Source: Bacteroidia bacterium (lineage in GTDB: Bacteria; Bacteroidota; Bacteroidia; Bacteroidales; GCA-2748055). Taken from it: 64,000 bases of DNA. The DNA lies in assembly GCA_030639005.1 (NCBI GenBank), contig DAOWDN010000091.1, positions 15,110 to 79,109 on the forward strand, written 5' to 3'. This document shows, piece after piece, positions 42,488 to 44,899 of the stretch (positions are counted from its first letter, which is position 1; each line of letters starts with the position of its first letter). Below the pieces are notes generated by a model. That model saw only the letters and a program-made list of their open reading frames with translations. It searched no databases and was not told where the DNA came from. The position numbers and the translations under genes are program-made.

Positions 42488-43345
42488 TCAAACAATCATT
42501 TTTTCAATAGGAATCACCAGGATGCCCTGTGCACCCAGTTCTCTGAGGCGGTCAATGACCCCCCAGAACTCTTTTTCACTGAGAACCGAATGAACCGAGC
42601 TCCACCCCTCTTCGGCAAGGGGCATCACGGTGGGACTCTTCATGCCCGGTATGGTCTGAATGATCTGATCCAGCTTCTCATTGGGGGCATTCAGCAGGAT
42701 ATACTTGTTATTGGAAGCAGCCTTTACACTCCGTATCCTGAAGAGCAGATTGGCAAGAATGCTTTTTACACCCTCTTCCATGTTCCGGTTGGCAATGACC
42801 ACTGCTTCCGACCGCATGATGGTTTCCACCTCTTTCAAACCGTTGCTGATCAGGGTACTTCCCGAACTAACTATATCAAAGATGGCATCGGAAACCCCGA
42901 TGGACGGAGCCAGCTCCACCGACCCGCTTAACACATGAACATCAGCCTTTACCCCATGCTCTCCCAGGTATTTCGTCAGGATCACCGGGTAAGAGGTGGC
43001 GATCCTTCTGCCGTTCATATCCTCCAATCCTCCGTAATCTTCTGATTTGGGAATGGCAATGGAGAGCCTGCACCTCGAGTAACCAAGACGTTCGACCAGG
43101 TCCACGGCACACTCTTTCTCGGCGAATTCATTCTCCCCCACAATTCCTATGTGGGCCACTCCATCCTCCACATACTGAGGAATATCATCGTCGCGCAGGT
43201 AGATTACCTCCAGCGGAAAGGACTGTGCCACCGACCGCAACTTTCGGGATCCGTTGTTTAATGAGATCCCAGCCTCCTTAAGCAATTCAAGTGACTTTTC
43301 ACTGAGTCGGCCCGATTTCTGAATGGCTATTCTAAGTTTCTCCAT
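42488..43345 (-). CDS. hisG: ATP phosphoribosyltransferase (long form)
   Basis: MEKLRIAIQKSGRLSEKSLELL.. starts at ATG 43345. The upstream extension in the track is not supported. Confidence 0.9.
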   Translation of the reverse strand: MEKLRIAIQKSGRLSEKSLELLKEAGISLNNGSRKLRSVAQSFPLEVIYLRDDDIPQYVEDGVAHIGIVGENEFAEKECAVDLVERLGYSRCRLSIAIPKSEDYGGLEDMNGRRIATSYPVILTKYLGEHGVKADVHVLSGSVELAPSIGVSDAIFDIVSSGSTLISNGLKEVETIMRSEAVVIANRNMEEGVKSILANLLFRIRSVKAASNNKYILLNAPNEKLDQIIQTIPGMKSPTVMPLAEEGWSSVHSVLSEKEFWGVIDRLRELGAQGILVIPIEKMIV

Positions 43346-43362
43346 AATTCTTGTTATTAAAC

Positions 43363-43390
43363 AAAAAAAGGTCTGCAGTATCTGCAAACC
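43363..43390 (-). terminator. intrinsic terminator of the his leader (attenuator terminator)
   Basis: The minus-strand RNA is GGUUUGCAG-AUA-CUGCAGACC followed by U7 (8 Watson-Crick pairs plus one G.U). It ends 17 nt before the hisG ATG. Confidence 0.7.
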
Positions 43391-43420
43391 TAACAACAAC
43401 TCTTTTTGGATTACAATGTA

Positions 43421-43489
43421 CTACACAGGGTCCTGACCAATCACGTGGTGATGGTGATGATGAACACTATGCCTCCTGCAGATCCTCAT
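43421..43489 (-). CDS. hisL: his operon leader peptide MRICRRHSVHHHHHHVIGQDPV
   Basis: 22 codons plus stop, read manually. There are 7 His codons, 6 of them consecutive (CAT CAT CAC CAT CAC CAC). It lies between a terminator hairpin and the upstream intergenic DNA. Confidence 0.7.
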   Translation of the reverse strand: MRICRRHSVHHHHHHVIGQDPV

Positions 43490-43600
43490 GTCTTTAAAAT
43501 CTACTGCAATATTAGTTATTAAATTGATAACATCAAACCGAAAGGTTGAATAATTTATTGGTAAATACTCCGGTTTGCTTTCGAATCGATAGCTGAACGC

Positions 43601-44899
43601 CTAAATATCCTTCAGAAGGATGTTGGACGGAGATTCCCGGATGGAGTGAAGTAAATGCTCATGGATCCTGGTAATCCGGTTCAGCTCGTCTGTCTCTGTA
43701 ACCACCATCTGGTCACCCCCCATCAGCTCCATCTTGCTATAGATGTAGGCCACGGTGATCCTGTTGATGTCAGTCGCCGGCAGGTAGGAGCGGTCCTTGG
43801 GATTGTCGGCCGCCATCTCGGCCAGGATCCCCGCTTCCACCAGTTCATATACCAGGTCATTGACCAGCCTGATTGGAATCCCGAGTTCATGACTCAGTGT
43901 ATCGGTGCTCCACGGATCCCCGCCATCCTCGAAATTCTTGATGATTTGGTAGGAGATCAGCAGTGTCAGGATCCGTTTGTTGTTGTGACTCAGGTTCAGG
44001 GCATCCTCCTCGAACTCGTAGTTCTCAATGTTCTGATAAGCAAAAGAGATTTCGGCGCCCACCAGAACAATCAGCCAGGTGAACTGCAGCCATATCAGGA
44101 AAAGCGGGATCATGGCAATACTTCCGTAGAGGGTATTGAATCGCCAGACTCCGATCTGCAGGTCCGTGTATAGTGATTGAAATATCATGGCCACTGTACC
44201 TGCAAAAATCCCGGCAATCAGGGCATACTTGAACTTTACCTTGGTATTGGGCATAACGATGTAGACGATGGTAAAAAGCAGCCAGATCGAGACATAGGGC
44301 ACCGACTTGATCATCATGACAATCAGGGGCTTGAACAGCTCAAACTCGGTGGCAGCCGACTGGATCTTCACCATGAAACCTCCGGAAAGACCTATGGCAA
44401 AGGGGCTCAGTATCATGATGGCCAGGTAGTCCGAGAATTTTCTCATGGGGCTCCTCGCCTTGCGGATCTGCCAGATATCGTTAAAAGCGGCCTCAATATT
44501 ATTCAGTACCTGGATCACCGACCAGAAGAGGATCACACCACCTACTCCGGCAAGAATCCCTCCTTTGGTTTTGGAAAGCAGGCTGTCGACCGTTTCGGTA
44601 AGCCATTTCATGATATCTTGCTGACCCTGCATGTTGTTGTTGATCGCTTCATGCATGCGGTCCTCGAAGCCGAAATTACGTGCAATGGCAAAGGCTATTG
44701 CAAAAATGGGCACAATGGAGAGCATGGTAAAGTAGGTAAGGGCGGCGGCCTTGACTGCAGCCCTGTCCTCGAAGAAACCTTTGAAGGCAAGAATATAAAT
44801 CCTTGATTGCCTGATCAAAAAGGTTTTTCGACGCGATTTGGAAGTGAGATCGTGCGACCAGATCTCCTCCTTGAAGAAAATTCTGAGTCTCTTAAGCAT
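43601..44899 (-). CDS. YihY/BrkB family membrane protein with C-terminal soluble (winged-helix-like) domain
   Basis: MLKRLRIFFKEEIWSHDL.. starts at ATG 44899. ..AAALTYFTMLSIVP.. is present. The protein is polytopic. Confidence 0.75.
   Translation of the reverse strand: MLKRLRIFFKEEIWSHDLTSKSRRKTFLIRQSRIYILAFKGFFEDRAAVKAAALTYFTMLSIVPIFAIAFAIARNFGFEDRMHEAINNNMQGQQDIMKWLTETVDSLLSKTKGGILAGVGGVILFWSVIQVLNNIEAAFNDIWQIRKARSPMRKFSDYLAIMILSPFAIGLSGGFMVKIQSAATEFELFKPLIVMMIKSVPYVSIWLLFTIVYIVMPNTKVKFKYALIAGIFAGTVAMIFQSLYTDLQIGVWRFNTLYGSIAMIPLFLIWLQFTWLIVLVGAEISFAYQNIENYEFEEDALNLSHNNKRILTLLISYQIIKNFEDGGDPWSTDTLSHELGIPIRLVNDLVYELVEAGILAEMAADNPKDRSYLPATDINRITVAYIYSKMELMGGDQMVVTETDELNRITRIHEHLLHSIRESPSNILLKDI

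Follow-up and report, generated by a model that had tools for sequence, protein, structure and literature searches.

Introduction

Leader-peptide attenuation is textbook biology and, to our knowledge, has been demonstrated almost only in Proteobacteria. The abstract of Vitreschak et al. 2004 reportedly mentions attenuators in "Bacteroidetes/Chlorobi".

Naville and Gautheret (2010) described leader peptides as unknown outside Proteobacteria and Actinobacteria, save for their own Firmicutes cases. Leaders of hisS and hisZ have been predicted in Firmicutes (PMC2965389), and Ashniev et al. (2022; PMC9413887) predicted His attenuators in the Bacillus cereus group, the Peptostreptococcaceae and the Erysipelotrichales. 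In the Bacteroidetes, Weinberg et al. (2010; PMC2864571) predicted a leader-peptide attenuator of the trp operon, the Bacteroid-trp leader (RF01692), which indicates that leader-peptide regulatory logic is in use in the phylum. Furthermore, Guérin et al. (2021; PMC9723704, Table S7 and SI D9) list an attenuation element with a His-rich leader ahead of hisG in Flavobacterium psychrophilum. Its start site is mapped, it yields a 129-nt 5' transcript, read-through varies with conditions, and expression is highest in minimal nutrient media. Leaders were not analysed in the study of the his genes of this superphylum by Del Duca et al. (2021), and the Bacteroides thetaiotaomicron transcriptome paper treats leader-like small ORFs in general terms only.

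Here we analyse a sequence upstream of hisG in a Bacteroidia bacterium, which an earlier note, made from the DNA alone, had read as a ribosome-dependent His attenuator. For Bacteroidota, the same note mentioned only comparative predictions of such elements. This is roughly right but incomplete, given the transcriptome evidence from F. psychrophilum (PMC9723704).

Results

A His-rich leader ORF and an intrinsic terminator precede a complete his operon

The window, i.e. the whole 64,000-nt stretch of DNA that was analysed, has the following features at and around the start of the his operon.

43507..43537, minus strand: candidate promoter TTTG-N19-TAATATTG (-33 and -7 boxes), from motif and conservation
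43489-43421, minus strand: leader ORF, 22 codons plus TAG, encoding MRICRRHSVHHHHHHVIGQDPV, from the minus-strand reading
43462..43485, minus strand: 5' strand of hairpin P1, leader codons 2-9 (GG..UGCA, GCAUAG, UUC), the predicted anti-antiterminator strand, from RNAalifold
43462-43445, minus strand: His run CAT CAT CAC CAT CAC CAC, codons 10-15, the proposed ribosome stall site
43408..43434, minus strand: switch segment (region 2), predicted to pair with the P1 5' strand or with the whole terminator
43425-43419, minus strand: X, UGUAGUA, a near copy of the terminator 5' arm, with outer pairs at 43427 and 43434-43432
43416-43408, minus strand: B, UUGUAA.CC, predicted to pair with the terminator 5' arm
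43391-43363, minus strand: intrinsic terminator, from sequence, fold and an independent terminator scan
43391-43382, minus strand: terminator 5' arm, AGGTTTGCAG
43381-43379, minus strand: terminator loop, ATA
43378-43369, minus strand: terminator 3' arm, CTGCAGACCT
43369-43363, minus strand: T-run
43345 to 36357, minus strand: operon hisG-hisD-hisC-hisB-hisH-hisA-hisF-hisIE, from NCBIfam

The leader ORF runs from an ATG at 43489 to a TAG at 43423-43421 and ends 75 nt before the hisG ATG. It encodes seven His residues, six of them in tandem; the extra His, at codon 7 (43471-43469), is conserved too. The ORF agrees base for base with that described in the earlier note, and it is also present in the mechanical ORF list. 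The terminator hairpin, GGTTTGCAG-ATA-CTGCAGACC at 43390-43370, begins 30 nt past the leader stop and has 10 pairs if A43391:T43369 is counted. It is followed by T7 (43369-43363), which ends 17 nt ahead of the hisG ATG at 43345, and has an energy of about -13.4 to -13.8 kcal/mol. An independent consensus scan of 42900-44100 made a single call, the terminator at 43391-43363. Thus, the hairpin and T-run lie where the earlier note had placed them.

The colinear hisGDCBHAF-IE operon reported in the earlier note is complete: all eight his ORFs score above the curated NCBIfam cut-offs, in that order, and hisB is bifunctional. The HisG protein is 100% identical to that of an uncultured Bacteroidales MAG. 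The mechanical hisG ORF begins at a TTG at 43399 and is 303 aa long (window 43345-43399, minus strand), and several database HisG entries (P0002, P0013, P0035 and P0054) have 299-304 aa rather than 285. These long forms start upstream of the real ATG (43345), inside or before the terminator hairpin, and are probably mis-calls caused by the unannotated leader.

We take TTTG-N19-TAATATTG (43507..43537) as a candidate Bacteroidota-type promoter, from a consensus that reportedly goes back to Bayley et al. 2000. The pattern TTTG-N18-21-TANNWTTG has a single match in the 64-kb window, ending 18 nt before the leader ATG. Because about 1.5 chance matches are expected somewhere in the window, the weight rests on the placement and conservation of the motif and not on its count. 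The motif is kept in 20/20 members of the window's clade (20 genomes with HisG 84-91% identical), and the variant in one of them (L014), TAGTTTTG, is a perfect TAnnTTTG, presumably a perfect Bacteroidota -7 box. The predicted transcript start is at ~43503-43500, for a 5' UTR of roughly 11-14 nt. The gene upstream of the leader, on the same strand, encodes a YihY-family membrane protein (NCBIfam) and stops at 43601. No terminator-like site was found between this stop and the leader (43490-43601, minus strand); hence, transcription that continues past the yihY-family gene would run into the attenuator. Outside the window's clade, the yihY-hisG neighbourhood has been retained at L019 and L020 only.

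His-rich leaders precede hisG across the Bacteroidota

The earlier note had suggested aligning the regions upstream of hisG in related genomes. We took hisG loci from 80 species-representative genomes of Bacteroidales, Cytophagales, Chitinophagales, Saprospiraceae, Flavobacteriales and Balneolaceae, and searched within 300 nt upstream of hisG for ORFs of at most 60 aa that start with ATG and contain HHH. Such a mini-ORF is present at 59 of the 78 loci, from at least five orders, and most of the fetched loci have their His-run ORF about 130-170 nt upstream of hisG. The same search found none on the reverse complement of the 78 loci, one in 1441 random windows drawn from the same hisG loci (about 0.07%) and one in 1560 shuffles. 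A triple run of any other amino acid occurs upstream of hisG at no more than 2/78 loci. A mini-ORF is combined with a terminator of -10 kcal/mol or better and a T-run at 62 loci (61 from species genomes, plus the window), and in most of these the terminator starts 24-46 nt past the leader stop. No His mini-ORF was found within 450 nt upstream of hisG at L047, L053 (Paludibacteraceae), L056, L058 and L077 (Balneolaceae); at these loci, either the operon is regulated differently or hisG is not its first gene.

All members of the window's clade have the promoter motif, a leader of the form MR(I/F)YRQHSVHHHHHH..G, the non-coding segment GACCCTGTGTAGTACATTGTAATCC and a near-invariant terminator, the pairs of which are intact in 100% of cells across 22 sequences. 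This leader has homologues in 20 species genomes and in dozens of contigs from metagenomes. Leaders from the different orders form several families, and the His run is the single trait that they have in common; the remaining peptide is not conserved. Families that share only the His run favour a codon sensor over a functional peptide.

The leader of most clade members ends at a first TAG. In the window and at L001, L005, L107, L119, L154 and L191, this stop has become CAG (window 43423-43436, minus strand), such that the leader is four codons longer (QDPV or QNPV) and ends at a second conserved TAG inside the switch segment. According to a footprint model, the antiterminator of this sub-lineage is thereby blocked more fully by the ribosome during termination. 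Leader codons 3-4 (window 43478-43483, minus strand) also vary: they read ATC TGC in the window, L001 and L191, and ATT TAC in most relatives. ATC TGC creates CTGCAG, such that the leader pairs strongly with the terminator 3' arm in this lineage only; the attenuator of the window may be leakier as a result.

The terminator also occurs without a leader. Sequences of the form GGTTTGCAG-loop-CTGCAAACC-T4+ with no leader were found at nine metagenome loci (L097, L104, L105, L108, L121, L159, L167, L173 and L187), where they are often palindromic two-way terminators or directly follow a sequence resembling a tRNA 3' end. These copies suggest that the hairpin is a common terminator "word" in these bacteria, on which the his leader was built.

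The leader and switch segment are predicted to form a hairpin

In the RNAalifold consensus, codons 2-9 pair with the segment that follows the ORF to form a hairpin (P1) that has the His run at its tip and is followed by the terminator. P1 is paired in 94% of cells in 20 sequences, as compared with 17-60% when the partners are slid. Compensatory changes in P1 number zero in this shallow clade of 20-22 genomes. Relative to shuffled sequences, the pairing between leader and switch segment has z of about -1 to -4. The earlier note had paired the His codons with the adjacent GUGAUUGGU. This hairpin is present in the minimum-energy fold of the window, but among relatives its pairs are intact in no more than 77% of cells, and it cannot be told apart from controls.

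A conserved predicted fold that excludes the terminator

With the ribosome stalled, the best fold other than the terminator is one long hairpin between the post-His segment and the whole terminator region. In this predicted fold, X pairs with the last two bases of the terminator loop and with the 3' arm, and UUGUAAUCC holds the 5' arm. The fold and the terminator are mutually exclusive, though the terminator is the stronger at equilibrium: in the window, the isolated antiterminator has -15.3 kcal/mol and the terminator state -17.0 kcal/mol. The antiterminator pairs are intact in 92.7% of cells in 22 aligned sequences, versus 31-47% with slid partners, and two pairs have changed on both sides among these 22 close sequences. 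Against shuffled segments, the extended antiterminator is modestly favoured at best, with z from -0.5 (in the window, where it is no better than a shuffle) to -3.3.

For most clade members, and given an assumed ribosome footprint, the net advantage of the terminator falls from between -7 and -11 kcal/mol to between -0.2 and -6.9 kcal/mol, and does so in the stalled state only. The in-silico switch of the window itself is small (-2.8 / -2.5 / -1.1 / -4.8), because the lineage-specific pairing of codons 2-4 competes in every state. At six loci with Chryseobacterium-type leaders, MxRTHHHHHL.C...PE (L050, L052, L054, L055, L066 and L072), the terminator has -21 to -23 kcal/mol and the ribosome-dependent switch is also small in silico.

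The earlier note had proposed to fold the RNA with and without masking of the His codons. We masked the mRNA under a ribosome placed at each codon and folded the remainder at equilibrium. For the window, the probability of the terminator is at least 0.82 in every ribosome state, such that this test cannot discriminate between readings. Since the terminator wins at equilibrium, a switch in the window would have to be kinetic. The equilibrium result alone is no refutation because an antiterminator only needs to form first. In classical attenuators, too, the terminator is more stable than the antiterminator.

Covariation supports a contact between the switch segment and the terminator loop

Because covariation among 20-22 close genomes is too shallow, we searched metagenome contigs for copies of this terminator, allowing any loop of 3-5 nt. 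The scan gave 131 terminator matches, 92 of them with an upstream His leader, and the loops vary widely. The terminator leaves its own loop unconstrained; if the loop covaries with a base upstream, a different pairing must be the cause. The upstream G[C/U]AG motif was picked blind to the loop, and duplicates were removed. The base after G[C/U]AG (43420) can pair with the last base of the terminator loop (43379) at 85 of 100 loci, as U:A (47), A:U (20), G:C (4), C:G (3), G:U (5) or U:G (6). Permuting the loops gives a mean of 49.5 paired loci, and 0/5000 permutations reach 85; owing to the shared phylogeny of the loci, the permutation test overstates their independence, though six pair types imply several events. 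The second position gives no signal.

Leaderless copies of the same terminator served as negative controls (n=31, against n=86 with a leader). The upstream region pairs with the loop and 3' arm at -9.0 kcal/mol where there is a leader and at -5.8 kcal/mol where there is none (p=3e-10), and the gap between the antiterminator and terminator states is 4.3 versus 10.5 kcal/mol (p=3e-11). Contact of the upstream region with the 5' arm is weakly better than in the controls, at -6.5 versus -5.95 kcal/mol (p=0.012).

Loci of Fulvivirga, Saprospiraceae, Chitinophagaceae and Flavobacteriales behave as textbook attenuators and served as positive controls. There, sequestration of the 5' arm, scored before the 3' arm has been made, goes from -1 to -5 kcal/mol (no ribosome, or a ribosome at the stop codon) to -6 to -15 kcal/mol (a ribosome on the His run). 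The window's clade has no such stall-dependent sequestration of the 5' arm. A classical antiterminator, formed by the post-His segment and the 5' arm, was also considered for this clade and was no better than shuffles.

Folding of the growing transcript

We also modelled folding of the growing transcript. When the ribosome is stalled on the leader of the window, the 5' arm is bound by B on emerging, after which X closes along the loop and 3' arm; the terminator does not become the best fold until the last base of the 3' arm has been made. With a ribosome at the stop codon, the terminator nucleates early. With no ribosome, antiterminator-type pairs last through most of the 3' arm, and the trace switches to the terminator only one base before that of the stalled ribosome. 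Given this one-base difference, the model can tell a stalled ribosome in the window from one at the stop codon, but not from a lack of translation. For most clade members, the assumed footprint of a ribosome on the first stop leaves B exposed, such that "replete" and "starved" are poorly separated, as at L004. At L009 and L019, the growing-transcript model gives no switch.

Discussion

We consider it likely that this element is a ribosome-mediated leader-peptide transcription attenuator of the his operon. The reading of the earlier note is supported in this respect, both by conservation across the phylum and by folds in relatives that depend on ribosome position. His leaders precede hisG in most of the Bacteroidota sampled, in families that are unrelated to one another and that are missing from Rfam and from genome annotation.

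How would such an element work? Transcription would probably start about 11-14 nt before the leader ATG, from the Bacteroidota-type promoter. In the OFF fold, codons 2-9 would pair with the post-His segment to form P1, the terminator would form, and RNA polymerase would stop before hisG. We infer that the leader is translated, and that a shortage of charged His-tRNA makes ribosomes stall at the six His codons. A ribosome stalled there would mask the 5' strand of P1. The freed segment would then grip the 5' arm through UUGUAAUCC, and UGUAGUA would zip onto the terminator loop and 3' arm. The resulting single long hairpin would exclude the terminator, and polymerase would enter hisG. With ample histidine, the ribosome would reach the stop codon, which in the window is inside the switch segment; the antiterminator would be blocked, and the terminator would form.

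We tentatively propose that, in this widespread Bacteroidales lineage with its terminator of the type GGUUUGCAG-loop-CUGCARRCC, sequestration of the 5' arm is not the main route, as it is in textbook attenuators. A decoy copy of the 5' arm may capture both loop and 3' arm, with the real 5' arm retained by a second, weak helix, such that the whole terminator is unzipped onto one strand. If true, leader-peptide attenuation would be achieved here in a distinct way, and there would be a defined element for probing transcription-translation coupling in Bacteroidia.

Two other antiterminators must be weighed against this arrangement. The earlier note suggested that leader codons 2-4 (GGAUCUGCAG) compete for the terminator 3' arm; we considered a version in which they would do so upstream of a stalled ribosome. 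These codons are similar to the 5' arm, as the note observed, and in the window and L001 the pairing amounts to 11 bp and -16.5 kcal/mol, equal in strength to the terminator; in the window, it lowers the net advantage of the terminator. However, the pairing is strong only in these two, and has -4.4 to -11.6 kcal/mol elsewhere: -4.4 (L005), -5.4 (L013) and -5.8 (L021) kcal/mol, and -6 to -11.6 kcal/mol in most other clade members. It needs two derived substitutions (ATT TAC to ATC TGC) that are common to the window, L001 and L191. Moreover, it cuts the advantage of the terminator in every ribosome state, so it is independent of stalling, and in kinetic terms the adjacent 5' arm is greatly favoured over a partner at a distance of about 100 nt. 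We regard this pairing as an improbable antiterminator and reject it as the conserved mechanism; it is a lineage-specific competitor in all ribosome states. The other possibility is a classical three-helix attenuator and nothing more, with UUGUAAUCC and the 5' arm as antiterminator and the contact with the loop and 3' arm irrelevant. That helix is the first to form in the growing transcript with a stalled ribosome, and the corresponding pairing is clear in relatives from the Flavobacteriales and Chitinophagales. In the window's clade, however, the helix is weak (a duplex of about -6.5 kcal/mol, with z of about 0 against shuffles) and barely exceeds that of leaderless terminators (p=0.012), and the covariation signal sits on the loop and 3'-arm side. 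Hence, we think it unlikely that the classical helix acts alone here.

It is also conceivable that there is no attenuation at all, the hairpin being the terminator of the yihY-family gene and the mini-ORF either incidental or a His-rich micropeptide with a function of its own. The yihY-family gene shares the strand of the leader, no terminator-like site lies between the two, and the same terminator sequence is found elsewhere as a generic terminator. Nonetheless, hisG is still preceded by the leader and terminator in all lineages that have another upstream neighbour in place of the yihY-family gene, which indicates that the hairpin is not merely a yihY terminator, and a conserved promoter motif separates yihY from the leader. 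The enrichment of mini-ORFs (59/78 versus 1/1441) speaks against an incidental ORF, and the lack of conservation between orders outside the His run speaks against a functional protein; we therefore consider this explanation very unlikely. T-box, riboswitch and repressor systems control his genes in Firmicutes and Actinobacteria (PMC9413887), and a histidine sensor of another kind in the region (T-box, riboswitch or HisR-type operator) would make the mini-ORF a bystander. This seems extremely unlikely for the window, given that Rfam returned no family for the leader region at E up to 10 apart from Thr_leader at E=7, and that the ~125 nt from ATG to T-run are fully explained by the ORF, P1 and the terminator. 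No T-box fold was matched in the region or in the whole window, and the whole window (1-64000) has zero RNA families at curated thresholds.

What is the practical significance of an attenuator of this kind? It overturns nothing. The leaders are of use for annotation, for expression models of gut and environmental Bacteroidota, and for the design of histidine-responsive parts. The element is also compact (~125 nt, leader ATG to T-run end), has an alternative fold that is backed by covariation, and is suited to tests of ribosome-polymerase coupling in a phylum with unusual promoters and Shine-Dalgarno-independent initiation. Bacteroidia ribosomes ignore Shine-Dalgarno sequences.

The Firmicutes His leaders resemble the element in having 3-5 tandem His codons before an alternative terminator and antiterminator, and are themselves comparative predictions only; their sequences are unrelated and they belong to a different phylum. 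The Bacteroid-trp leader has Trp codons and precedes the trp operon, and RF01692 does not match the region. The F. psychrophilum element is from the same phylum and, like that of the window, lies before hisG, has a His-rich leader of about 20 aa and a terminator, and matches no Rfam family. Its leader family, MSLNQLHHHHFHICSQAKC (also at L049, L061, L068, L076 and L080), differs from MR(I/F)YRQHSVHHHHHH, and its terminator, ACCCGUUUG..., differs from that of the window; the relatives at those loci show a clear classical 5'-arm antiterminator. In sequence, the leader and terminator of the window differ from MSLNQLHHHHFHICSQAKC and ACCCGUUUGAG..., and thus fall outside the flavobacterial hisG leader family.

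The E. coli and Salmonella hisL leader has the same logic. In both cases, a short ORF with a His run is followed by an intrinsic terminator just before hisG, and the operon has the same gene order. Mutually exclusive RNA folds are chosen by ribosome position, and charged tRNA-His is sensed, as we propose here. The enterobacterial His_leader family (RF00514) is matched neither in the region at E up to 10 nor in the whole window at the gathering threshold; the element is an analogue of that family and not a member. Unlike hisL, it has a different type of promoter and no Shine-Dalgarno sequence, and a single long leader hairpin, tipped by the His codons, takes the place of a series of helices. 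Thus, the kind of element is already known, also within the Bacteroidota, but the geometry of its antiterminator is possibly distinctive: in the best-supported contact, a copy of the 5' arm engages the loop and 3' arm, and pairing is not, as in hisL, with the 5' arm alone.
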